A DNA stretch of 64,000 nucleotides from Schmidtea nova (lineage: Eukaryota): positions 72,602,001 to 72,666,000 of the forward strand of contig CM097882.1 of the NCBI GenBank assembly GCA_044892505.1, written 5' to 3'. Both the position numbers and the translations under genes were made by a program. The number at the start of each line of letters is the position of its first letter. Position 1 is the first letter of the stretch. The notes beneath the pieces are model-generated. The model was not told the origin of the DNA and did not search any database. It was given only the letters and a program-made list of their open reading frames with translations. Shown here in pieces: positions 13,169-63,345 of the stretch.

Positions 13169-13599
13169 GGAGAGAGCCAATTTGACGTCGTGGAACCTCG
13201 TAGCTTCACACGGTGGTTTACCTTTTTATAAAGAGTAATAATTTAGAGAGAACTGGTGAAGTCGATGAATCTTTAAACAATGCGTTTTATTTTTGTAAAG
13301 AAAAAGAATGACTTTTGAAGTTTAAAACTTTATTTAAGAAATCTTGGTACTATTTATAGTATAGTATAATAGTATAGTACTATTTATACTATTTATAGCC
13401 GACACCAGCACAATCAGCAAAGCTTCTTGGGAAAACAATAAACAATGATTTCATCTGAGGACCCAGTCAATCAAGCATAATCAATCACACATGCAGGAAT
13501 GACACAATATATAATAAGGGTTAGGAAAAATCAAATATCCCATTATAATTACATCACATCCCCCTCGTTTTAAATGGCTCTAGCCATTCACATTTCTAG

Positions 13600-16500
13600 T
13601 AATACATTTATTATCAGCATTCTTTAATAAATAACTATTTTTATTATATTTTTCCATTATTTAAAAAAGGTCCGCAATACCTGTTATCTTGCTTGTTTCT
13701 GATATCTTCCTTGACAAGTACCAATTCACCGACTCCAAAAGATCTATTTATTCGATTTTCCTGTTTATAATTATATTTACGATTCAATGATTTAATATTC
13801 AATGCTATTTCATGTTTCTTTCGTTCTTTAGCATTAATTTCTGGACCATTAGTAAAACGCTCTTTGCAAAATTTCCTTCCATAAATTACTTCAACAGGAC
13901 TAACTTTTATACTTGACTGCATTGTTGAATTCAATGCAAATTCTATATGAGGCTATGCTTCTTCCCATTTCTTAAATTGTTTCTCTTCCAAACAGCAGGA
14001 AATCCAGTCTCTTAGCGTTTTAAATTGCCTTTCAATTTGTCCATTAGATTGATGATGATAAGGACTTAAATAAACAATCTTCAAGTGATACTTTACTGTC
14101 ATATTTTTAAAAGCTTGGGATTCGAAACATTTTCCTTTATCAACATGAATTTCCTTTGGCGGTCAAAACTTTAATATCCGCGAACTTTCCACATTATCAA
14201 TTACTGTCTTTTCTCCTTGTGTTCTTACAGCTTTTAATACTATATATTTACTAAAATGATCTATTATAGCCATCACATATCTTTTGCCAGATGGTGTCAT
14301 TTTAAAAGGGCCACAAAAATCAATATATAATTTTTAAATGGTTCATGCTTAATTAGTTTTTCAATAACTTCTTTTGTTTTACCAGTGAATGTTTTACGTT
14401 TCTGGCAAATTTCACAAGTTGTGATAATTCTCTTAATACTTTTGTCCATTTCTTGGAAATTATAATAATTCTTTATGTAGCTTTCCGTTTTATTGATTCT
14501 TGCATGACACAATTCTTTATGGATTTCTAGTATAAAATCATTTTTCAAATATGAAGGAATATATATTTTATGAGTCATAATAATTCCATTATCCACATAA
14601 TAATATTCAGTTTTGCCGTTCTGAATGTTTTCTTTTATTTCCATTATTTCTTCAGAATTACTTTGCAATTTAAATGTTTGATCTTCTATCGACATTGCTT
14701 AAATTTTAGTTTTAATTTTTTCTGCTTTAGCATCAATATGATTCATCTGACATTGTGTGCAATTTCCAATATTCAGTCGTGATAGTGCATCCGCATTATT
14801 GTGTTTCTCACCTTTGCGATATTCTAATTTCATGTCAAAACTACTTAAAAAATTTATCCAATTTTGAAACTGAGCTGTAATTTGTTTTTTTGTAGTTAAC
14901 ATAAATGTGATTGCCTTATGATCAGTTCTTAAAATAAATTTTTTCCCTACAGATAATGTTTAAAATGCTGTGTAAAATGGAAAACAGATAATAATTCCTT
15001 TCTTGTTATACAGTACCCAATTTCATGTTTATTCATACTTTTTAAACCATATGCGATTATCTTTTCTTCATTATCGTCACCTCTTTGCGATAAAACAGCA
15101 CCAATACAATCAAAACTAGCATCGGTGTCTAAAATGAACGTTTTATTAAAATCCGGATGACATAGTAATGGTGCACCGATCAAACTATGTTTTAACTCGT
15201 CAAAAGCTGTTTTACATTGTGATGTCCAAATAATACTTTTGCTTTTACCTCCAATTAATGATTTCAATGGCCTATCTATTTTTGAGTAATTTTGAATAAA
15301 TTTCCTATAGTAATTACACAATCCTAAAAAGCTCCTAAGATGTTTCACACAATTAGGCTGCTTTACATTTTTAATTGTTTCAATCTTATACACATCTGTT
15401 TTAATACTTTTTTCATTAATTATATGACCAAGAAACTTAATTCAGATACTAGGAACTTGCATTTCTCAGGGTTTATTTTTAGTCCAGATTTCCTAATTCT
15501 AAGGAAAAGCTTATTTATTCTTTCTTTTTGTTCTTCAATAGTTTTCGAAAAGATCAGTATGTCATCTAAATGGACTAATGCTTCATTCCACATCATATCT
15601 CCAACTATTAATGTCATAAGTTTTTGAAACGTTGATGGTGCGGCTGCTATTCCAAAAGGCATCCTATTAAAGCAGAATTGGCCCTGTCTTGTAGAAAATG
15701 CTGTTTTCAATTTACTCTCTTCATCCAATTCAACTTGATAATAAGCATTTCCTAAGTCGATCGATGAAAAATATTTGGCCCCATACAAAGAATCTAGCAT
15801 TTCATCAACATTGGGAATTAAAAAAGCTGGTCTAACTGTATTTCAATTTAAAATCCTAAAATCCAAACACATTCGAATTTCAGAAGTTCCTTTTTTTGGC
15901 ACACATACTATTGGTGAATTCCAAGGTGATTCACATTTCTCTATAATTTTATTTTCTTCTGGGTTTTTAACAATTTCCTCTAGTTTTTCTTCATAGTGCA
16001 TTGGTTGTCGTCGTGGCTTAATTGGTATTGAATTGCAGTTAGTTTCTATTCTGTGCTTTAAAATATCTGTTTTGCCTATATCCCATTTATTACACATAAA
16101 AATATCTGAGAATTCAATAACTTTTTCATATATCGGATTGCATCTTTCAATTTTCAATATTTCATTAATAAATTTATTTTTATTATTTAATTTTAAATTA
16201 TTACCAAATTTTGCTTGCAAACTGAGGACATTTTCAATACAAAATTCAACTAACTTAATATTTAAAGAATTCAATATATCTATTTCTATAATTACTTCTG
16301 GGTATATTTCCTCTGCAATGAAAAATTCTCCAGTTATTTCTTTATTGTTGAGCTCTAACCTTAAAGAAACTTTCCCTAAAATCCCTAACATGCTACCGTT
16401 GGCACAAGATATCTTTCTATTTCCTTCATTAAAATATTTTAAATTCAAGTTTTAAGTAATCGTTTTAGATAAAACACTTATTTTTGCTCCTGTGTCAAAT

Positions 16501-16642
16501 AATGAATTAAAAGTCACATTATTTAATTTAACATTATTAAATGGTCTGCCATCTACCTTACAATATCCTATATCAAATATATCTTTAATAACATTTACAC
16601 TCGGTCATTTTAACGTTTTATTAAATATATTTAAAATGCAAT
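13600..16642 (-). pseudogene. pol: G1 pol (protease, RT, RNase H, integrase), fragmented
   Basis: LFDTGAKISV, DLGNAYYQV, MPFGIAAAP, VHLDD, LDTDAS, HKELCH...CEIC, GQIERQFKT; multiple stops and frameshifts. Confidence 0.92.
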
Positions 16643-16733
16643 TGTAGGAAGAATGTAATATTAAACAATTAATGTTGTTTTAATATGATGAAAATGTGAT
16701 AAAAATATAATTTGAAAAACGTTGTGTTTTACA

Positions 16734-16745
16734 AGCTATCCGGGC
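16734..16745 (+). promoter_or_regulatory. Primer-binding site AGCTATCCGGGC (complement of tRNA-Lys(UUU) nt 1-12)
   Basis: Abuts the 5' LTR terminal CA; identical 12-mer at the same position in the element at 37269-37280; metazoan tRNA-Lys(UUU) 5' sequence GCCCGGATAGCT recalled from memory. Confidence 0.8.
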
Positions 16746-16746
16746 A

Positions 16747-17463
16747 ATGGAAATCAACAAGATCATAATTGAAAATGTTGGAAAATTCGATGGCAAAAAT
16801 ACAGATGTGGAAGAATGGTTCGACAAACTCGAAATTATTTTGGAAGCCAAGAATGTGAAAAATGTCATGAACGTAATGCCATTTTTACTTGAAGGGCAAT
16901 CTTATGCAGTTTTCAAACAGTTAAAGAAAAGCAATACGACAATGGAGTTTGGTATGCTGAAGAAGGAATTATTGAAAACCTTCGGTATGAGCGATCAAGA
17001 AGCTTTTACGAAACTTTTACAGAAAAAGTTATTAATGGGTGATAACATGGATGTCCATGTAAATGAATTAAGGTCACTGTTGGAATGTTCAGGTGATCTA
17101 TTAACCCGATTTTTTGTAAATAGCTTACCAAGTGATTTGGCAAATCAACTAAAGATGTCAACAGCGTCAACAATGAATGAGTTAGTCGCTCAAGCAAAGA
17201 AAATTGCAAGTCATCAAATTTATGACAATGAAACGGTTGCAGTAGTAGTACCAAGATCAGATAATGGAAGACAAGCCAATCGAAAATGTTATATATGCAA
17301 TAGTGCTAATCATGTGGTAAGATACTGTCCAGAAAGACGTAACATCAGATGTGCAAAATGCGGTATTATGGGACATATTTCAAGGTTTTGCAAGTCGGGA
17401 AAAGATCAAGGGGCTACACACAATGTGGAGTCGGGTGTGGCCCCAAGAATTGTGAATATGTGA
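16747..17463 (+). CDS. gag: Gag with two CCHC zinc knuckles
   Basis: 238 aa; CYICNSANHVVRYC and CAKCGIMGHISRFC. Confidence 0.95.
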   Translation: MEINKIIIENVGKFDGKNTDVEEWFDKLEIILEAKNVKNVMNVMPFLLEGQSYAVFKQLKKSNTTMEFGMLKKELLKTFGMSDQEAFTKLLQKKLLMGDNMDVHVNELRSLLECSGDLLTRFFVNSLPSDLANQLKMSTASTMNELVAQAKKIASHQIYDNETVAVVVPRSDNGRQANRKCYICNSANHVVRYCPERRNIRCAKCGIMGHISRFCKSGKDQGATHNVESGVAPRIVNM

Positions 17464-19940
17464 GACTCCTAAAAGTAAATGGTAATGTAAAAGCATGTTT
17501 AGTTGATTCGGGCAGTACTACCACTATAGTAAAAGGAAATCCACGAAAATCTATGACTGCGGTAGCGATGCTTGATGGTTCAATCATATACGCTGAGCGA
17601 AGTAAAGTTGATATATGGGTTGGAGATACGTTATTTAATATTGATTGTTTAATATACCCGAAACTGGTATCCAATTATGATGTAATTTTAGGAGTGAATG
17701 CTATTAATAGGTTTGGTGGAGTTCGATTGAATAAAGAAGCCATATTCGGTTGTGAAGAAGCACTTTGTCACGTAGCGTGCTCTAGTAGTAGCATGTCAGA
17801 AATATTGAAGGAAAATTTCTCTGCGAAATTTGAAAACGAGAAATGGATTGTCAAATGGGATTGGAAGTCAGAGCCACCGAAATTTCTACCTAATAGAAAT
17901 TCAAACTTTTATGATAATTGTAGTAAGGATCAGGAGACGATGCGAATCTTGAACTCTTGGATATCTAACAGTTATCTAGTTGATTATGACGAGAAAACAA
18001 TGGGCAAACCGATCGGATCAGTACCTATTTATGGTATAATTCAGTTAAATAAAGCGAAAGTGCGTCCAGTATTTGACTTTAGGAGTATCAATAAATATAT
18101 TGATGTATATATTGGGAATGCAGATATCTGTTCTGAAAAATTACGATCATGGAGATGTTTAAGTAAAGAATTTGCAATGTTAGATTTATCTGATGCATAT
18201 ATGCAAATACACGTGGATAAAAGTATGTGGCGATATCAATCTTGTATGGTTAACGGGAAGAGATATGCGCTTACGAGAATGGGATTTGGATTGAATATCG
18301 CGCCAACGATAATGACAGAGATTGTGAATAAAGTATTGAACAACAATGAATCAATCAAGAATAGCACAAGTTCATACATAGACGATATATTCGTAGATGA
18401 ATCTAAAGTCAAAGCAAGTAAAGTAAGTGCAGAAATGCGTAAATTTGGTTTGATATGTAAAGAAGAAGAAAAGGTCAAGGATACTCTCAGTATAAGAGTA
18501 TTAGGTATTGATGTATTTCGAAAGAATAATGAACTACATTGGAAAAGATCGAACGATATTCGAATGAATGAATTGAATGAAGGGCTTTCAAGAAGAGAGC
18601 TGTATTCGTTATGTGGCCAGTTAGTTGGAATTTATCCTGTGTCTGGATGGTTGCGGCCAGCTTGCTCATATATCAAGAGGCTATCCAGTGGAAATTGGGA
18701 TGATTCAATAGAAAATCATATCGTTGACAAAGTAAAATGGTTATTAGAAAGAGTGAATGAAAGAGATCCATTGTCAAGTATTTGGAGTGTTCCCAGCAAC
18801 CAGACAGGCATAATTTGGTGTGATGCAAGTTCGATCGCCATTGGAATTGTATTAGAAATGGGAGGTTCAGTGGTTGAAGATGCGTGTTGGTTGCGAAAAC
18901 CTGATGATTCAAGACACATTAATTTGGTGGAATTAGAAGCGATTGTGAAGGGTATTAATTTATGTATTAAATGGAAGTTAAAGTACATCAAAATTAAATC
19001 CGATAGTAAATCAGTTGTATGTTGGGTTAACAGCATATTATCAAGCGACAGAAAAATACATACAAAAGCAAATTCAGAGTTGTTAATACGACGAAGGCTG
19101 GAGCTTTTAAAAGATTTAGCGACCGAGTATGAACTTAAAATGGACATTGAGTTTGTATCTACAGAAAATAACAAGGCTGATGTATTAACGAGAGTACCAG
19201 CCAACTGGATGATTATTAAAAAAGAAGTCGCAGCTCTAGGCAATCAAAAAAGCTCAAAAGATGTGTTATTAGAGATTCACAAGAATTGCCACGTAGGGAA
19301 AAATCGTATGCGATTCTTAGCATCGGAAGCGGGGCTACTGAATGTGGATAATGAGATCTCAGAAATAATTGCAAGTTGTAATCAATGCTTATCAATTGAC
19401 CCAGCGCCAGTAACGTGGGAAAAAGGTGAACTAAGCTGTGATGAAAATTGGTGCCGTTTAGCAATTGATGTAGCTAAATTTGCTAAAGATAAATATTTGA
19501 CAATTATTGATTGTGGACCATCGAGATATGCAATCTGGAAGAAAATTAAGTATGAAAATGTAGAAGAGATATGTAATGCTTTAAATGAAGTGTTATATGA
19601 AAGAGGAGCTCCAAGTGAAATATTGTTAGATAATTACTTATCTTTTAGATCTAGAAAATTTCAAGAATTAGCAGATAAATGGAATGTTGAGTTGGTATTT
19701 AGAACAGTGAACCGTCCAGGGGGAAACGGGATCATTGAACGCAGCCATCGGACAATCAAATCGCTAGCAGCTAGGTCCTCAGGATCAATCGCAGAAGCTG
19801 TGTACTGGTTCAACAATACACCAAACAACAATAATATTTGTCCATCTAGAGCTATATTTAGATATAATCCAAAGCTGAATTTGCCAAGTTACAATAAAAA
19901 AGAGTTGTTAAAGATTCAGATGAATCTGGTGGGGATGTAG
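17349..19940 (+). CDS. pol: Pol (PR-RT-RNase H-IN), -1 frame relative to gag
   Basis: LVDSGS protease; DLSDAY, MGFGLNIAP, YIDD RT; CDASS, LVELEA, KSDS, NKAD RNase H; H-H-C-C and D-D-E (AIDV, LLDN, IIERS) integrase; stop codon lies inside the 3' LTR. Confidence 0.96.
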   Translation: MCKMRYYGTYFKVLQVGKRSRGYTQCGVGCGPKNCEYVRLLKVNGNVKACLVDSGSTTTIVKGNPRKSMTAVAMLDGSIIYAERSKVDIWVGDTLFNIDCLIYPKLVSNYDVILGVNAINRFGGVRLNKEAIFGCEEALCHVACSSSSMSEILKENFSAKFENEKWIVKWDWKSEPPKFLPNRNSNFYDNCSKDQETMRILNSWISNSYLVDYDEKTMGKPIGSVPIYGIIQLNKAKVRPVFDFRSINKYIDVYIGNADICSEKLRSWRCLSKEFAMLDLSDAYMQIHVDKSMWRYQSCMVNGKRYALTRMGFGLNIAPTIMTEIVNKVLNNNESIKNSTSSYIDDIFVDESKVKASKVSAEMRKFGLICKEEEKVKDTLSIRVLGIDVFRKNNELHWKRSNDIRMNELNEGLSRRELYSLCGQLVGIYPVSGWLRPACSYIKRLSSGNWDDSIENHIVDKVKWLLERVNERDPLSSIWSVPSNQTGIIWCDASSIAIGIVLEMGGSVVEDACWLRKPDDSRHINLVELEAIVKGINLCIKWKLKYIKIKSDSKSVVCWVNSILSSDRKIHTKANSELLIRRRLELLKDLATEYELKMDIEFVSTENNKADVLTRVPANWMIIKKEVAALGNQKSSKDVLLEIHKNCHVGKNRMRFLASEAGLLNVDNEISEIIASCNQCLSIDPAPVTWEKGELSCDENWCRLAIDVAKFAKDKYLTIIDCGPSRYAIWKKIKYENVEEICNALNEVLYERGAPSEILLDNYLSFRSRKFQELADKWNVELVFRTVNRPGGNGIIERSHRTIKSLAARSSGSIAEAVYWFNNTPNNNNICPSRAIFRYNPKLNLPSYNKKELLKIQMNLVGM
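17397..17444 (+). promoter_or_regulatory. -1 ribosomal frameshift signal
   Basis: G GGA AAA heptamer in gag frame (17397-17403), 6-nt spacer, 10-bp stem GGGGCTACAC / GTGTGGCCCC. Confidence 0.8.
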
Positions 19941-20201
19941 GAAGAATGTAATATTAAACAATTAATGTTGTTTTAATATGATGAAAATGTGATAAAAATA
20001 GAATTTGAAAAACGTTGTGTTTTACAGCAATCATTTTTATAACAATCACTCACAAATATACAGTCATTCTCAGTATTAATTAAATAAAAATCATTATCAG
20101 ATTTTTGATTGGGAAAAAATCAACATTAACATTATCAAACAAACAATCAACCAAACAATCATTACATTTAACATTTAGGGTCCTCAAAAATTTATCATTG
20201 C

Positions 20202-21369
20202 TTACATGTGATTTATCGCTCCTAACATATCCCCTCTGCTCGGAGCTTTGGCATTTCCCGATATCTCTGACTGTCCATCATAGTCTCTGGATTCGTCATC
20301 ATCTACTGCAACCACGTGATCTCCATAGTTTCGATCATTTTCTTGATTAGAACTTCGATTGTATCGATTGAAATTTCCATTGTTTTGATTCGAAGTTCTT
20401 TGAAATCTCATCTCGTAGTGATGTTGTTTCTGAAAACATTGAAAACTTAAATGACCTGCTTTTCCACAACACGAACAACGAATATTTGGGTATTCCCGAC
20501 GAATATGACCAATTTCACGGCATGCGTAACATTGCACTTTTGAATATTCATCTGAACTTCGATTTTGATAATTGTTTCTATTTTGAGGTCTTCCACTGAA
20601 ATTTCTACTGAAATTCCTTTGATAATCTGATCTTCCTTGAAATTGATTTCTTTGTAATTTTGAAAATTCATTTTTCTTATCAATTTGATTTCGCTGATTT
20701 CCATAACTATTTCTTTTTTCATTGGAATTGTATTGACCGTTTTTCACAATTGACGCGTAAGAGGCATTTCCAACGGCTGAAATTTGTTGTATCTTTGATT
20801 TATCTTCATCCAATTTCTGTAAAATTCTTTTAATATATTTATTTGCCGTTGGATCTTTCTGTACTGACTCTCCATCATTTCTGAAATCTTTTTTCGATAA
20901 TTTTACTTTCAGCAAATCTTCCATCATTTACTATCTTTTTATTTCACGTTTTTCTTCTTCATTATCAAGACAATGCTTTATGAAGAATGTTGTCAAATTT
21001 GACATTGTTAGCTTGTGCTTCAGAATTCTTTGAACTCCTTTCTCAATTTTGCTGATGTGTTTCTGCATCATCTTCTCTTTTTCGATAATTTAGCAAATTT
21101 TCCAAATCCTTAGCTAAATCCTGGTTTACTTCGAACACTAGTCTAAGCCTTTTCACATAATCTTCTTCATCTGGAATCTTGTCATATTTGTTGCGGCAAT
21201 TTTCGTCCAAATAAGCTCGAACAATTACCTTTCTGTGACTATTGTCTAACTGAATAATTGAAAAGTATGATTCAATCTTCTCAATAAATTCTTCCAAATC
21301 GTCTCCAATTGAATAGATTTTTGACTGTGGGAGAATCCGTAATAATTCCTGAGTTGAAAGCGTGGTCAC
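20202..21369 (-). pseudogene. gag: G1 gag (frameshifted near 21050), two CCHC knuckles
   Basis: ORFs 21043-21369 and 20202-20927; CYACREIGHIRREY (last Cys lost) and CSCCGKAGHLSFQC. Confidence 0.9.
20218..20259 (-). promoter_or_regulatory. -1 frameshift signal of G1
   Basis: G GGA AAT heptamer in gag frame, 6-nt spacer, stem GCTCCGAGCA / TGTTAGGAGC. Confidence 0.65.
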
Positions 21370-22035
21370 CCTGTAAAGAATAAGAATGACTTTTGAAGTT
21401 CTAAATTTTTATTTAAGAAATCTTGGTACTATTTATAGTACCCGGTGTGCTGACACCAGCACAATCAGCAAAGCTTCTTGTGAAAATAATAAACAATGAT
21501 GTCATCTGAGGACCCAGTCAATCAAGCATAATCAATCACACATGCAGGCATGACACAATATATAATAAGGGTTAGGAAAATCAAATATCCCACTATAATT
21601 ACATCACAAGTTTAGTAAATTATTTCGTTGCACATAGTGATAATCGCGGCACGGGGTATAGTGAAACAGGAGACGGGCGCGAAATTTAATACCACATCAT
21701 TTTCATACAGAGGGGCTGGAAATACTGCAGTAAATAAATCAGCGGTTCAAAGATACATGTTTGCGTTATCTCGTAAATGGGTTAAATCTTTTAGTCGAAA
21801 ACACGGTTAGGATAGGTAATAACTCTCAGACAATACATCGAGACAGATAGAAGGGGAAATATTGAGAAAATAAATGGGTTTCCAAACGTAATCACTCCAA
21901 CAGTTGTTCACCAATTTATTGCGTATCGTTTTCAGCCACATGCCACTCGCAAGAATCTAGATCAATCAATCGAAACCATCTATATAAATTTTCACCTGAC
22001 AGATCGAACGAATCGATAATTTTCAGATAAACAAT

Positions 22036-33889: not shown

Positions 33890-36800
33890 CTAGAACTTTA
33901 CAAGACCTTGATTTTAATATTATTGTTTCGATCTCGATCTGGCTTAATGCGTTTGTTTCCAAGACGGATATCTGGCACATGTCTAGGTACTCCATCAACG
34001 TCAATATTCGTAGAAGAATTGACAGTTGTAACGATTCCCGGATTTCATATCGTAGTACATCGCGCGTTTGGCGGCTTCACGAAAACTGGCTGGCCAATGA
34101 TGTAACTGCTTTCGGCAATAAAATCCACGATTTTCTTGTAAGGAAGTTTCCAATTATACAAGAATATTTTTTCCGATGGACTTTTGGAATTACTTTCTGA
34201 CGATTTCAGCACCATGTTGTACCAATATACCATTTCGAGTGGACTTTTTCCATTACGAACAGCCACGCGCTTAATGGTTCGATGGTTTCGTTCGACGATA
34301 CCATTACCTCTGGACGGTAAGCACATCAAAAAAGCCTCTGCACACCCGATTTTGTGCAAGTTTCAAGCACCTGAGCCGACCGAAGTGTCGCTCTATTGTC
34401 CATCAGAATTTGCTTTGGAGGCCCACGCTCTCTGAATACCTCTTCCAACAGATATGCTACACTTATTGCATCCTCGTTTCGTGTCTTTTTCCATATCGCA
34501 AGCCTGCTCGGAACATAACCAACGATAGTTAAGAATTTGTCAGAACCAAAATGTGTGACATCAATTGCAATACGACTCCAATTATACATAACATTAAGAT
34601 CACTATGAGACCGTGTACTTGTGCAGGGTCAATCGACTGACATTGTAGACACTCCTGAACAACAGTCTTAACATCAGCTCTAGATGACAACGGATCATTC
34701 GTTTTGACGATATGGTGCGTTTTATCTATTCCAAATTGATGCATTTCGTGAATTTTCTTGATTTCATTCAGATTGATTCCGACGCTCTCTACTTGCTTGG
34801 TTTTCATCCTCCACTTTATCCATACTCATGTAAGACTATCAGCTTTGTCACTATTTAATTTGATAAGCATAATCTTCAGATGAAGGAGGCATTCTGCAAT
34901 CAAATCTTCTATAATACCAAGGCGTCTGCGGATTAAAGCCTCTGTAATTCCATGAACATGAACTCGACTATTTCTGTCTATTACCGCAGACACCCACGAG
35001 AATACAGAGGCAGAATCAATCATTATAGTGATGTCTTTGGGTCCCCATTGAACGCCCAGATTGATACCCTTGAGTACCGAGTCAAATTCAGCCAGATTAA
35101 TATGCGAAAGATCGTTGGTCTTCCTGAGCCATGCTGCATCTTCCACCGTTACTTCATTCATTTCAATGACGAAACCAATAGCTATATCGCTAGCATCACA
35201 CCAGACCACTCCTGAATCAGTTTCCGGAACTTCCCATTGACCAGTAGCTGGATCTTGTCTATTAATCTCGATAACGAGTACTAGCATTTTCTCGCACAAC
35301 TTACCAGCTTTATCTTCCCATTTGACGACTTTACAACATCTTTTCAAAAAACTACACGATATTCTCATCCAGCTTGCAATTGGATAATGACCCACTATGC
35401 GGCAACACATGGCATAGAGCTCTCGTTTTGTCAGACTATTCTCTGTATAATCGATATTGATAATGTTACCTCGAAACCACATCAGTTTTCCATCTCGAAT
35501 ACTGTGTATTTTTAAACCTAGGGCTTTGGCACCTTCGATTGGTTCTGGTTTTTTGGTAATCAGACCATATTGCTTTAAATGCTGAACTACGGTATCTACG
35601 TCGACACGAGAAAGATCCAATGCAATATTATCAATATAGTGTGACGATACTGCAGCAATCCTTTCATCTTTAGCCAGAACACATCTCAGAATTGTCGACA
35701 TGATTTTAGGAGCGTTACGCAGACCAAACCCTAATCTATTTAAAAAGTAATTTTTACTTTTATATTTAATCATCTGATATTGCCAGAGATCTTTTTTCAC
35801 TTTAAGTTGAAGATATGCTTTTTTCAGATTGAGCAACACAATATTCCTACCCACGCGTCTCCATTTCATTAATGTAGATCGACAATCATCGCTATCACCA
35901 GTGTGACTAACTTTATAAGAATTCAGTTCTCGAAAATTCATGACTGGATGAACTTTATTCTTATTTTCTTGAAATTCAGCCATCAAAGGAGTTAAACCAA
36001 TTGAAATATTGCTTGCTGATAACAGCAACCCTTTTCCAATCCACTCGTCCAATTCTGATTCATATTTGGCTTTGATTTCTGGTTTCATTTTGTATTCACT
36101 GATTTTATTTTTAATAATTGGTGGGGTATCTTGCCACTTCCAAGCTACAGTCCACTCAACGCCATTAAAGTTAGCCGTGAAATCAGAATTATCTATTTCC
36201 AAACTTTCAGTTGCTAAATGATCAACAACCACCGCTGCTACATTCGATTGAATTCCAAAACGAACCCCATTATCAGATATCGTCACTTCTTTCAGTGCCA
36301 TTATTGCTTCAAGTCCTAAAATCATATCCACGCCCTGCAATAAAGAATCCATAATTAAACAATTAACCACTATCTCGAATCCTTGGACATTCATGATAAC
36401 TCTTGATAATTCGACACTGTTAACTATTCTTTCATCAACTGACATGACTTTAATCTTCTTCGAGGACTTTCGCTTATCCGACACCCGCACAATCCATTGT
36501 GAACAGCCAGAATCCACCAGCGCCAGTCCTTTCACCCCATCCACCACTACATCAAATAATACATGCGCCATACTGGAATTTACTGGCAAGCTGCTGGCGC
36601 ACCAACTTCCCTTTTGTCGTTTCCGCATCATTGTTAGGACAGTCTCTGTTTATGTGACCAAGGATTTTACAGGCCCAGGATTTTACGGACAACTCGAAGC
36701 TCACTGCATTCATTAGACTTGTGACCGATCTTCCCACAGCTGTAGCACCGAACTTTCTGACGAACACATTCACTGACCACGTTTCTTGACACTAACACCA

Positions 36801-37367
36801 CGGAATTATATTCCATTTGCATCATCGACCTTGTCTGATGCACAACCTCGTCCATTGTCATTGTTGTAATCTTGGAACTGGCCCTGAGAAATTTGGCCAC
36901 TTTTGATGGAAGACCAGTAATAAATGCACATCGGAGCGCGTCATTCCCATTGATGTTTGCCAACGAGAGTAATCGGCGTAAATCTGCCCGGAAATCGTCT
37001 ACCGGTTTGTTGCACCATTGTCTGTTTCGAAACAATTCTAAAGCAGTAAACAGTCTATTGAATATGCACTAATTAGTGCCTTTTCAAAAGCTCCGACATT
37101 CTTCTTCTGACCTTGGGATAAATTTTGGTAAACTGTGAATGCTGCCCCATCGAGAAACAAGGGAAGGACATCAACGATCTCGCCCACCTTCTGTAGCTTA
37201 GACACTAGCTATTGAATTACATCTCCATCTCCAGAGAATATCGAAATTGATTTTAGTTTATCCATTTGGCCCGGATAGCTTGAAGAGAAGTCAAATCTAA
37301 ATTAACAAGATCAATGTTTATTACAAATAAAAATCACTATTTATAAGTAAATCTATATTACATTTCA
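33890..37367 (-). mobile_element. Decayed relative of the mini LTR element; 5' LTR present, 3' LTR not found
   Basis: Putative 87-bp LTR 37281-37367 (TGAA...TTCA); gag ATG 37265 with stops and frameshifts, CCHC knuckles; pol ORF 34826-36631 (LVDSGCS, YIDN, CDASD, HINLAE); integrase with C-terminal VKPP...RCTT...VDGVPRH extension. Confidence 0.9.
37269..37280 (-). promoter_or_regulatory. Primer-binding site AGCTATCCGGGC (second copy)
   Basis: Immediately follows the LTR terminal CA on the element strand, 3 nt before the gag ATG. Confidence 0.78.
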
Positions 37368-39541
37368 CTGTTGCGTACCATAGAAACTGCCACCATGCGA
37401 TGCATAACTTTCATCGCATCCTGTGACTAGTGAGGTAATCATTCGACACTACACAATCAAATTATTTTATTCTTTAATTATCATTGTTATTACTATCTTT
37501 ATTATCATAATTATTGTCTTTATCTTATGATTCATTATCGAATCTTTATCTTCTTTAATTATAATTCATATTTATCAAAATTAATTTTCATAAAAATTAA
37601 AATTCTGTTAAGGCTGGCCTCAGGTACGATATACTCAAGTTAACGATTCTACCTGGACATGTTCAAATGTACCTAGCATTTATACTACTTTTGTTTATTG
37701 TGAGAGAGATAAAACAAAATATGTTATACCAATTGGTGACAAAGAAACAACATTGTCTCCACAGGATAAATATATTATAAAAAATATTTTCTTTATAGAG
37801 GGTTTTATCACTTATACATATCTCTTTATGAATCATTCCTTCCAATGTACTTGCTTGGCAAAAATGTCATTGACGCCATACGATAAGGAAACCGAAGAAA
37901 ACTTCGATCTTCCTTTTAAAAGTAAGGTTTGATTTTATCAATTTTTTCCACTATCACATTAGTTCAGTGATTCCCAAAGTGATTCCCTTGGGGGAGTTGG
38001 AGGCCGGTTAATTATATGTCTAACTCAGGTGTTTGGGCAAAACCTATTATTTACGTAATTTGGACTTTTATTGTAACTCATTTAAATTCTTTCAATCGAT
38101 AATATTTTTGTTCTGATTGGTTTGACTTAAATTCATAAGAGAAAAAAAGAGGACCCGTCGATAAGTTTAAAAGGTTGATGATAAAGTTAAGCATTTTTCA
38201 GCCAGTTCAATTTTATCGAAGTTAAAAATCATTCTAATACTTTAATAAACAAATATGTGATTCAAGTTATTGTTTTTTAATTATTTTCATAGTCATGACT
38301 GGATCAGTCAGTCCACTATTCTGGTGAAAGATTTTTAGAATCAAGGAGATGGTGGCTTTCACTGCTTTAGTTGAAAGTTCACTGCATCTTTTGAAGTATT
38401 TTTAACTTTAAGATCCGGCTCTTCATAGTAACTGAATTTATATTGGTTAATTAATTGTATAATTTTTTCTGTTCAATCGGCCTGGTGTCGAAATCAGGTA
38501 AGAATCAAGTAAGTTCGAAAAGTAAAAGTAAGAAAAAACTTTAAAAATAAGTGAAATAATATGAAACAAAAACCGGGCGATGGCACTCTGGTACGAATGT
38601 AAATCTTTAGATATTTCGTTATGACAACGAAAAATTTTAAAATGAAAATTAATAGTTTTTTTCTTTGTATTTCATGAAAATTTTCTTTCTCTTAAAAGGT
38701 GAAATTCCAAAAATTTCAAGCTTTTTTCAAATAATAAAAATGTTAGTTCTCTTATATCAAAGGTGCTTTCTTTCACCGGAGTGGTTTCCATTAACTTATT
38801 CTAAGTTACAGTTTATTTTAGTTTAAAAATTAAAATTTTTCTTTAGGGTTATTGACTTTAGTTCTTTAAGTACATTGACCTAAATAAATATTCTCAAACT
38901 TTTATAGGGCTCTTTCTTAAATAATTATAATTATAATAATTGTTATTACAATTACAATAATAATAAAAAATAATAATTAATATTATAATTATAATTATAA
39001 TTATAATATAATTATAAAACAATAACCATATTTTATTAATGTTATTATGTCCGTTTATAGTATTATTTTTATTTACTCTTTTTATAAGATTTTGTATTAA
39101 TAAGTTTATATAGAATCAAGTGAGATATGAATTCAGGCCCTCCCACTCCATAGCAATATTTATGGCTGTATGAAATATTTGCACGATAATACCGACAAAG
39201 GAATTTTTTAGACAAATTTCAAAACAAGAAAGATAGATAAATAACTATTTAAATCATATTAAAATTTTTATTTCTTATTAGTATGCTTTATAAAAATTTT
39301 TTGTTTTAATGGAATCTATTACGATTTCATAATTAAAATAACTAATTTGTTACACTAATATAATTTCTAGATTTTTAAAATGAATTTGATAATTTGTTTA
39401 ACATTTATTTAGAACTTCAATGTAAAATATTTTTATTTTTTATGATTCCTTTTTTCCGTTGAAGCCTCTTGTAAATAAAAATTAAAACATTTTTTTCATT
39501 TTATATTTGTATTAATAATTATTTTTGTTTTTTTTATTCTA

Positions 39542-61292: not shown

Positions 61293-63345
61293 CAGTGGTT
61301 CTTAACCTTTTTGGAGGTACCGAACCCCACCAGTTACATATTCGCATTCACCGAACCCCTCCTAATTTGAAAAATAAAATTAGATTTTTTCAAATTCAAA
61401 ACGTGGTATATATATGTAGGTGTACAAAATGAAAAAAAAAAATAAAAAACAAAGATCAAAACATTAAATTTTAATGGTTAAATCAAAACATGAAACATAT
61501 TAATTAATATTTACTTCAAATCAGTGTGACTTCTGCTGTTGCCTTTCAGAAACCAATTCAGAAATTCGCGGCTTTACCTTGGCAAGTGCCACTCTTATGT
61601 CATTTTCACAACAAAGTCTATTCCTCTTCTTCGTTTTTATATCCAGCATCTTCGAAAAGGATTGCTCGCAAAGATATGTTGTAACAAACGGTATAAAAAT
61701 CTCCAGAGCTTTCTTAGCAATAACAGAGTATGTTTCCATTTGTTGACACCAAAACGTTGAGAGCGATGTTGTTCTGAAGAGTTTCTATTGAACCTGGCTC
61801 TGCTGAATTTCAATGATTTCATCAAGGTATTCATCATTGATGTTGACTGCTATCTCAACACTAAACGTGAACGGCTGTCTCACCCATGCTGGATATGACT
61901 CTCTTGTAGGGAAGTATCCATCGAGAGAGTTTGCAAGCTCACCTAAGTGCGTCGCAATTGCAGGCTTCAGTTCCGCGGTTATTTCAGGTACATCTTCGTT
62001 TTTATTTACACAGTCGTCTAGCAGGGGAAAGTTTGCAAAGTTATCGTTCTCTGTTCGTCGTTTCCATAACGGTAACTTTTTTTGAAAAGCCTTCAGGCCT
62101 TCTTCTGCTTCGATGATGTTGACTACACCGCCCTGCATCTGTTTATCGAGATTATTGAGAGCTGCGAAGAAATCAACCATGTACGCTAAAATGAGAATGA
62201 ACTCAGAATTTTTGAAGCAATCTGCATGACAATGTTGTTGCTTTTGCAAAAACTGGGCTAATTCCACATGCAAGGCAAAAACACGATTCAGCACCTGTCC
62301 CCGGGACAACCACCGAACGTTAGAATGGTACAGAAGTATCTTGAATTCTGATCCAATTTCATTACAAAGCTCCTTGAAGATGCGGTGTCTCAGAGCACTA
62401 TTTCGCTCATAGTTCACGCATTCCACTACAATTTTTAATACTTCTGCCAGTTTGGGAGGCAAGGTTTTTGTTGCCAACGCATGCCTGTGTAGAATACAAT
62501 GAGTAACAATGATGTGTGGTGCATCGGCTTTCACTAACGCACCAAAACTAGACTTTCTTCCCAACATGACTGGAGCTCCGTCCGTACAAACTGCAGAAAC
62601 TATATCCCACGAAAGATTGTTGTCTTTGAAGAAGTCATCCACTAGTTTCTTCACATTGGCTGCCTTAGTTGTTGTTGTAGGAGGCTTACAAAATAAAAAT
62701 TCTTCCTTTATCTCGTCGTGTTTCACATAGCGCACGAATACTGCAAGCTGGCTTAGATTAGAAACGTCTGTGGTCTCGTCAAGTTGAAGGCTGAATGTTG
62801 CTGGGCTTGAAATCAGATCTGCAACTACTTGAGCCAAGATGTCTTTGCTCATTTTCTCTATTCTGTCACTGATGGTGTCATTTGAAAGAGGAATTGGGGA
62901 TAACTTATATTCAACCGCTTTTCCCAGCATGATATTCACCATCTTCAACATAGCTGGTTTTATGAATGTTTCACCAATGGTGTGTGGTTTGCTCTGCTTT
63001 GCGATCAGGTAAGCAACTTCGGACGATGCCGTGAGGATCGGTTTTTTGACGGGTACAAAGCCGAGTACAGACAGAGTAGCCTTTTCATCAAATCTGACTC
63101 TCTTCACCTTGAATTCAGCGAGCGTTGTGTTCTTGTATTTTCCATCTCAATGCAGCTTAAGGAAGTGTTCTCTTAGTTTTGCCGGTGCTAGACTAGAATT
63201 ACTCAACTTGGCATTGCAAATCATGCAGTAAGGATGCTGACTCCCATCACGTTCCGTTATACATGTGAATCCATATTGTAAATATTCATCCGACCACTTT
63301 CTTTTTTTGCTCGACATAGTTCGTGCGAAGGGATTAAATACGTTA
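61293..63345 (-). mobile_element. Buster/Charlie-type hAT element, 3' TIR intact, 5' end truncated
   Basis: TIR CAGTGGTTCTTAACC at 61293 preceded by TGTTAATG (nnnTAnnn target pattern); contains the transposase below. Confidence 0.9.
61521..63317 (-). pseudogene. hAT transposase (ZBED8/FAM200/SCAND3-like), 598 codons, two premature stops, no frameshifts
   Basis: MSSKKRKWSDEY..., BED finger (CMIC...HFLKLH), LQLDETTD, CTDGAP, HCILH, VRWLS, TTYLCEQSFS; stops at about 63147 and 61785. Confidence 0.93.

Follow-up and report, generated by a model that had tools for sequence, protein, structure and literature searches.

The window, i.e., the whole 64-kb stretch of Schmidtea nova DNA analysed here, carries two elements of one LTR-retrotransposon lineage, element 1 (family A) and element 2 (family B), with the following features.

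16643 to 16733, plus strand: 5′ LTR of element 1 (family A), 91 bp; target duplication GCAAT at 16638–16642 and 20027–20031
16734 to 16745, plus strand: predicted primer-binding site of element 1, 12 nt, the same as in element 2 (sequence match)
16747 to 17463, plus strand: gag of element 1, 238 aa, two CCHC knuckles (translation, domain search)
17343 to 19940, plus strand: pol frame of element 1, −1 relative to gag, with protease, RT (YIDD), DUF7047, RNase H, and integrase
19925 to 20026, plus strand: polypurine tract and 3′ LTR of element 1 (LTR at 19936–20026)
33916 to 34825, minus strand: integrase region of element 2, broken (tblastn pieces in three frames); homology to the family B copy L148 ends here
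34826 to 36649, minus strand: pol of element 2, with protease, RT, DUF7047, and RNase H; a premature stop ends the frame (34% identity to element 1 Pol)
36552 to 37265, minus strand: gag of element 2, with stops and frameshifts and CCHC zinc knuckles (translation; tblastn to element 1 Gag)
37269 to 37280, minus strand: predicted primer-binding site of element 2, 12 nt, exact complement of tRNA-Lys(UUU) nt 1–12
37281 to 37453, minus strand: 5′ LTR of element 2 (family B), 173 bp, TG...CA (end-to-end alignment with the paired LTRs of family B copies L148 and L150)

Element 1, an LTR retrotransposon, spans 3384 bp; its LTRs measure 91 bp, GCAAT is the duplicated target, and its pol has 865 codons versus 929 in many family A copies. 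The family is young (142 scored copies with 97–100% RT identity), and its site is unchanged in 93 of 100 copies (the first 100 of 183 listed, selected by flanks alone). Across families and hosts, a motif containing ATC lies upstream of the G-rich polypurine tract (window 19915–19935; loci L148–L167; L054, L060, L062, and L067) and bears a faint resemblance to the central part of the primer site. A decayed canonical Ty3/Gypsy element (13398–21580, minus strand; RVT_1 at 96 bits, RT_RNaseH_2 at 102 bits) encloses element 1; it has repeats at 13398–13529 and 21449–21580 and no evident TGG-type primer site after its 5′ repeat. Elsewhere in the window, a 453-codon frame with a weak DUF4371 match (61785–63146, minus strand) is likely a hAT-type transposase remnant.

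Element 2 is a decayed, 3′-truncated LTR retrotransposon. Its polypurine tract and 3′ LTR are absent, the window holds no paired repeat for it, and its homology to family B copies stops near 33916. Lacking a 3′ LTR, it has an LTR that is not definable from the window alone; this LTR was placed at 37453–37281 because, in two of six other family B copies fetched (L148 and L150), paired 173-bp TG..CA LTRs with 5-bp target duplications end flush with the same 12-mer.

That 12-mer, AGCTATCCGGGC, occurs at two sites in the window, 16734–16745 (plus strand) and 37280–37269 (minus strand), and at no others, with 0.0004 matches expected by chance. The original prediction had described element 2 as sharing this motif with element 1 despite an unrelated LTR and well-diverged proteins, and the description was borne out: blastn found no similarity between the element 2 LTR and the 91-bp LTR, the Pol proteins share 34% identity and the Gag proteins ~30% over part of their length, and the 12-mer, flush with the LTR end as defined by family copies, is followed by CAA and then the gag ATG (37265–37263). 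The further claim that only 12 nt are exactly conserved holds for the 12-mer, but the exact run common to both elements is 14 nt with the terminal CA of the LTR included, and two short pol matches also exist between them.

The site is the exact complement of nt 1–12 of the mature host tRNA-Lys(UUU), in keeping with the suggestion that it pairs with a fixed host RNA. AGCTATCCGGGC has 1127 matches in the host genome (1.25 Gb), versus one for a reversed-pattern control; 681 of them run on as a tRNA pattern, and ARAGORN identified ten genes in two array loci as tRNA-Lys(UUU), with the gene start at the first base of the match. About 446 non-tRNA matches remain (1127 minus 681), and the first 30 of these listed all consist of CA, the 12-mer, and an ATG within 0–3 nt, in three families. 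The match is the longest of this tRNA in either window element (the next is 8 nt), does not reach into the pre-tRNA leader, and agrees at wobble positions with the 5′ strand of the tRNA, not the 3′ strand. The predicted duplex with nt 1–12 has −24.6 kcal/mol versus −12.4 kcal/mol for the last 18 nt of the tRNA, and TGG, the hallmark of 3′-end priming, is absent from the first 8 nt past the LTR in 63 elements.

The tRNA genes of the host form long tandem arrays of a single type each (Lys-UUU with a 419-bp unit, Phe with a 240-bp unit and 2511 pattern matches, Met with a 243-bp unit, and Lys-CUU with longer units; L032, L147, L169, and L415). At L031 (1501–1530), the 5′ half of tRNA-Lys(UUU) and the upstream flank of its array are fused to unrelated sequence, possibly through insertion into a tRNA gene. 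Six dispersed loci (L409–L414) match a tRNA-like 15-mer, and ARAGORN called no tRNA in the two checked.

A looser pattern gave 828 genome matches (control 6), mainly AGCTATCGCGGC, which is the complement of nt 1–12 of the tRNA-Phe(GAA) in the tandem array. CA followed by exact AGCTATCGCGGC (hereafter the Phe site) occurs at 686 genome sites, the reversed control at none, and Pol matches were found at 18 of 20 Phe-site loci, with paired LTRs flush with the site in seven of ten loci fetched at length. So as not to select on the motif, 40 of the 150 RT matches listed were fetched by RT protein. All loci with an intact gag start region, i.e., 28 of the 40, carry the site (26 Phe and two Lys; 22 exact and six with 1–2 mismatches); eight of the other 12 lack the gag N-terminus, and four are deleted or truncated over the site. 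In paired-LTR copies of both site classes (Lys and Phe), tRNA nt 12 faces the base adjoining the CA of the LTR. The proposal of 5′-tRNA-Lys priming thus stands as far as the lysine complement goes, but sites of the lysine type are outnumbered, tRNA-Phe 5′ ends being matched in most of the lineage, and priming itself is inferred. Another abundant motif, AGCTATGACGGC, was tried as a third site and dropped, as the predicted host tRNA was not found (0 matches; 0 of 10 loci); it is an unrelated repeat, because 12 of 12 fetched copies had neither an LTR pair nor an adjoining gag.

Trees of the sequences support the predicted independence of the two window elements. In an unrooted RT–RNase H tree of 66 rows (12 of 78 labelled loci were omitted for their short length), family C and element 1 cluster with Phe-like-type metagenome elements, and element 2 groups with Phe-type elements, two of them from this genome, so that the two Lys-site elements occupy different branches and each has nearer relatives with Phe-type sites. 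When the Lys-site families were constrained to group together, the AU p was a marginal 0.0425 with 36 rows and 5.6e−5 with 38 rows, after the addition of two family B copies. Because the tree is unrooted, gain and loss of the Lys site are indistinguishable in it.

If the primer is copied into the site, sites of the Lys(CUU) type would be expected, and seven copies have them. Host tRNA-Lys(CUU) differs from Lys(UUU) at one of the 12 positions, and at this position (position 6) 11 genome matches depart from the Lys(UUU) site: T6>G, the exact Lys(CUU) version, in seven element copies (five of family A, two of family B), T6>A in two copies (family C), and T6>C in no element (two genome matches, outside elements). 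Position 4, used as a control, gave T4>A in five element copies (four independent) and T4>G in none; these T4>A variants (L204–L208) were rejected as a signal, lying within background. Site position 4 faces tRNA A9, a commonly methylated base. On the tree, the five family A T6>G copies are scattered among ordinary copies (one aligns poorly), and 0.1–0.9 family A T>G copies were expected (rate from 14 copies; Poisson p 0.0007–0.006). Fisher's test against position 4 gave p 0.02–0.06, for a variant noticed before testing and a signal of seven copies. A parallel test for swaps to host tRNA-Met gave a full Met-type site in 0 of 19 matches, and C9>A in 13 versus C7>A in six.

Outside this genome, named Pol homologs come from Hydra, Sycon, Watersipora, barnacles, crabs, shrimp, Trichuris, and an acanthocephalan, and Pol representatives with E below 1e−30 number 2535, a count that takes in fragments and possibly neighbouring groups. 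Among 78 metagenome loci, 57 were testable, i.e., had a gag N-terminus and upstream DNA, and 56 of these have the site (54 by script, one pick being 12 nt off; L047 and L055 by eye; one contig begins inside the site). Conservation at positions 1–5 is circular, because the regex fixed them and the Gag profile was seeded from motif-bearing loci; the free positions 10–12 are GGC in 39, 36, and 37 of 41 distinct LTR ends, and positions 6–9 vary. At position 13, information drops from 1.44 to 0.40 bits (41 distinct LTR ends), so conservation stops at tRNA nt 1, and the expectation that it would end at 12–13 nt proved correct. In all seven loci with a repeat ending at the site, the repeat end adjoins the base facing tRNA nt 12.

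Compared with the 5′ ends of this host's tRNA-Phe, tRNA-Lys(UUU), and tRNA-Lys(CUU) and of a human tRNA-Phe primer, 26 of the 56 metagenome sites match exactly. Twelve of the 56 are of this host's Phe type, one is Lys(UUU), and one is Lys(CUU); 12 of the 56 equal the start of a human tRNA-Phe(GAA) primer (PMC10505166, in the part of its text available). Eight match the tRNA-Phe of one viral-collection contig, which is not a host, two match this host's tRNA-Met at 11 of 12 positions, with position 1 changed as tRNA nt 12 requires, and six deviate at tRNA nt 1–3. Within the host, the Lys(CUU)-type copies and the Phe-type sites agree with the original expectation that the site tracks tRNA 5′ variants; in the metagenome contigs, sites vary where tRNA acceptor stems vary. 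Of 28 loci with an ORF, 26 have the ATG 0–26 nt past the site, in all three frames, and two have it at 104 and 125 nt. Post-LTR sequence is constrained, and a tRNA-matching post-LTR site is a feature of the whole lineage.

Other collections yielded little. The viral collection yielded one Mag-like element only, the sponge-type protein had no match there, and the 80 of its 120 pattern loci that were examined contained no lineage member; the ESM Atlas returned unnamed clusters only; and 46 reads of one raw RNA run (under another species label) aligned, without showing start or end sites. A sister group (P0084–P0092), with named matches from the sponge Sycon, has fused Gag-Pol proteins of 1200–1430 aa and DUF7047 in common with the lineage.

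The complementarity of the site, its position, and its covariation with tRNA make it a predicted primer-binding site, and on these sequence grounds its primer is probably a 5′-terminal tRNA fragment of ~10–12 nt, not the tRNA 3′ end. The right end of the LTR marks the start point of minus-strand synthesis (PMC7175516, in part). This start lies opposite tRNA nt 12, and from nt 13 on the tRNA is unable to pair with the end of the LTR, so that the primer would have to end at about nt 12, which would require a cut in the D stem; removal of one or two bases by integrase would allow an end at nt 10–12. Inside the particle, the acceptor and D stems of the tRNA would be invaded by the RNA of the element, which would anneal there. 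Cleavage of the tRNA near or exactly at nt 12/13 would follow, with the element's RNase H as the simplest agent and a host nuclease trimming a 5′ tRF as the alternative, and RT would extend the new 3′-OH into U5. During plus-strand synthesis, the primer would next be copied as far as its 5′ end, rewriting the site each cycle, and such copying would account for both the conservation stop at tRNA nt 1 and the isoacceptor swaps. The element's own RNase H is the simplest candidate for the cut, since the RNase H of Tf1 cuts an RNA duplex to free an 11-nt 5′ primer (PMC7175516, in part) and the acidic residues of RNase H are conserved across 44 rows of the lineage. By this analogy, we guess that it is the cutting enzyme.

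The 5′ end of the tRNA could instead serve as an anchor in packaging, in dimer formation, or in the control of translation, with the priming 3′-OH provided by another RNA or, through a second site, by the far end of the same tRNA. Bipartite tRNA binding is known for Ty3 and Ty5 and, with the site lying 0–26 nt ahead of the gag ATG, would suit such a role, but neither window element has a second tRNA match above 8–9 nt, no TGG follows within 8 nt of the LTR in 63 elements, and the LTR end, which is set by the 3′ end of the primer, is flush with tRNA nt 12. Lys(CUU)-type swaps were found, moreover, although DNA synthesis would not copy an anchor, and we regard anchoring as improbable. Conventional 3′-end priming by a tRNA was rejected, given no TGG-type site in the 63 elements. 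Less credible still is Tf1-type self-priming from the element's own 5′ end with an incidental tRNA match: length and position of the site do resemble the 11 nt of Tf1, as far as the available text on Tf1 describes them, and metagenome locus L116 has an 11/12 complement 327 nt upstream, but the best complement within 400 nt upstream is 6–9/12 in 22 own-genome elements and 6–8/12 in 40 of 41 metagenome elements, and self-priming does not predict that unrelated LTRs have one site in common. We give just as little weight to a translation-start motif, a protein-binding site, or chance. The site is near the gag ATG, but its offset from the ATG ranges over 0–26 nt in three frames and its offset from the LTR is 0, its middle bases change with tRNA identity (three host tRNAs), and reversed-pattern controls gave 0–1 matches; the start-motif alternative raised in the original prediction thus fails on the variable distance.

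Within the preferred reading, a 5′ tRNA fragment as primer, the cut could be made by the host, a sub-case that takes a share of that reading's probability and that we consider rather unlikely, though clearly less so than anchoring. A longer 5′ tRF or tRNA half would anneal and be trimmed by a host 3′ exonuclease to the edge of the duplex. Abundant 5′ tRFs and halves, Lys-TTT included, are reported from a planarian, with tRF-5 pools of 18, 21, and 24 nt in libraries that would not keep 12-mers (PMC7962491, in part), and fragments longer than 12 nt would need trimming because the LTR end offers no pairing partner for the tRNA from nt 13 on. This route, however, needs a host activity inside the particle, whereas the Tf1 route needs none; the sequence fits both.

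Surveys list three kinds of primer for LTR elements, i.e., the 3′ end of a tRNA, a half-tRNA, and RNA of the element itself (PMC6317226, in part). No report of a site complementary to tRNA nt 1–12 was found in the literature searched, with subscription journals, Repbase Reports, and GyDB outside its coverage, and the available portions of PMC6317226, PMC10886601, PMC7175516, PMC4600332, PMC5445492, PMC3601003, PMC5408684, PMC13524379, PMC7962491, PMC12859917, PMC6681497, and PMC10505166 describe 3′-end, half-tRNA, and self-priming and no such site. Tentatively, and with somewhat more doubt than confidence, we propose that an unnamed, deep-branching superfamily of 3.4–4.3 kb elements, ranging from sponges and Hydra to flatworm-like hosts, crustaceans, bryozoans, and nematodes, uses its own RNase H to cut the first 12 nt off mature tRNA-Phe, -Lys, or -Met, and that this would be an undescribed fourth priming mode, a trans-acting form of Tf1 self-priming. 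If true, a 12-nt 5′ tRNA fragment would be a fourth kind of primer for LTR elements and would link tRNA priming with Tf1-type cleavage priming, two modes whose evolutionary order is debated (PMC3601003, in part). Further, 5′ tRNA fragments would gain a defined target, and pipelines that seek tRNA 3′ ends alone (as in the available text of PMC13524379) would score elements of this lineage as PBS-less. Because the copies of family A are 97–100% identical in RT, this young family would make the primer observable in the host.

Among known systems, the lineage has the features of LTR retrotransposons, i.e., paired TG..CA LTRs, a 5-bp duplication, a polypurine tract, and gag with PR-RT-RH-IN (element 1; L148 and L150 for LTR pairs), and this domain order is that of Ty3/Gypsy. 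By sequence, the lineage nonetheless appears to lie far from Ty3/Gypsy and outside it. RVT_1 reaches 15–40 bits in the lineage, RT_RNaseH has no match, with DUF7047 and RVT_3 instead, and the lineage profile (44 rows) has a best E of 6e−9 to any solved RT; the control element L121, which we take to be Mag-like, scores 107 and 121 bits and E 2e−71 to Ty3 RT, and the Gypsy element surrounding element 1 scores near Ty3/Gypsy profiles, unlike the lineage. The lineage trees hold lineage members only. The predicted fold (pLDDT 89) comprises RT and RNase H, and its nearest structures are caulimovirus and foamy virus RTs at 16–18% identity, which does not place the lineage. With DUF7047 between RT and RNase H, the lineage may be an unnamed LTR superfamily whatever its primer. 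Its RNase H motif presumably resembles DIRS-type RNase H; DIRS, Ngaro, and VIPER were set aside as assignments, given rve and H2C2 integrase domains and no tyrosine recombinase match.

Troyka and the Kuafuorterviruses are likewise an LTR lineage of aquatic invertebrates outside Ty3/Gypsy with PR-RT-RH-IN (PMC12440569, PMC11673190), but Troyka/Kuafuorterviridae have CG..CG termini and 3-bp duplications (PMC12440569) versus TG..CA and 5 bp here, and IADD/VADD/LADD and CX2CX8-10HX4C versus the catalytic motif YIDD/YLDD/YVDD and the knuckle CX2CX4HX4C of this lineage, and were rejected as its identity; the Troyka paper mentions no PBS, primer, or tRNA (PMC12440569). Canonical 3′-end priming, as in retroviruses and most Ty3/Gypsy elements, is similar in its host tRNA, often Lys, and in TG..CA, polypurine tract, 5-bp duplication, and gag-pol, and differs in a site that begins with TGG and pairs with the CCA end, as upstream of the L121 gag and in 0 of 63 elements here. 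Half-tRNA priming (Ty5, copia, Osser, Bryco, Bianca, and fungal Helenus) also uses a 3′-truncated tRNA as primer, but its sites pair with the anticodon loop region and, in the available parts of the sources, are reported in Copia lineages only (PMC6317226, PMC10886601); here the match is to nt 1–12, not the anticodon loop, and integrase follows RNase H instead of preceding RT, so half-tRNA-primed Ty1/Copia was rejected. Tf1/Tf2, Tj1, and the Tf1/sushi group share an 11-nt 5′-terminal RNA that pairs flush with the LTR and is cut free to give a 3′-OH (PMC7175516, PMC4600332, both in part). Membership in this self-priming group was rejected, as the site is not complementary to the element's own 5′ LTR: the Tf1/sushi primer is the element's own 5′ end and its RT is of the Ty3 type, whereas here the complement lies at host tRNA 5′ ends, not in the LTR, and the RT is far from that of Ty3.
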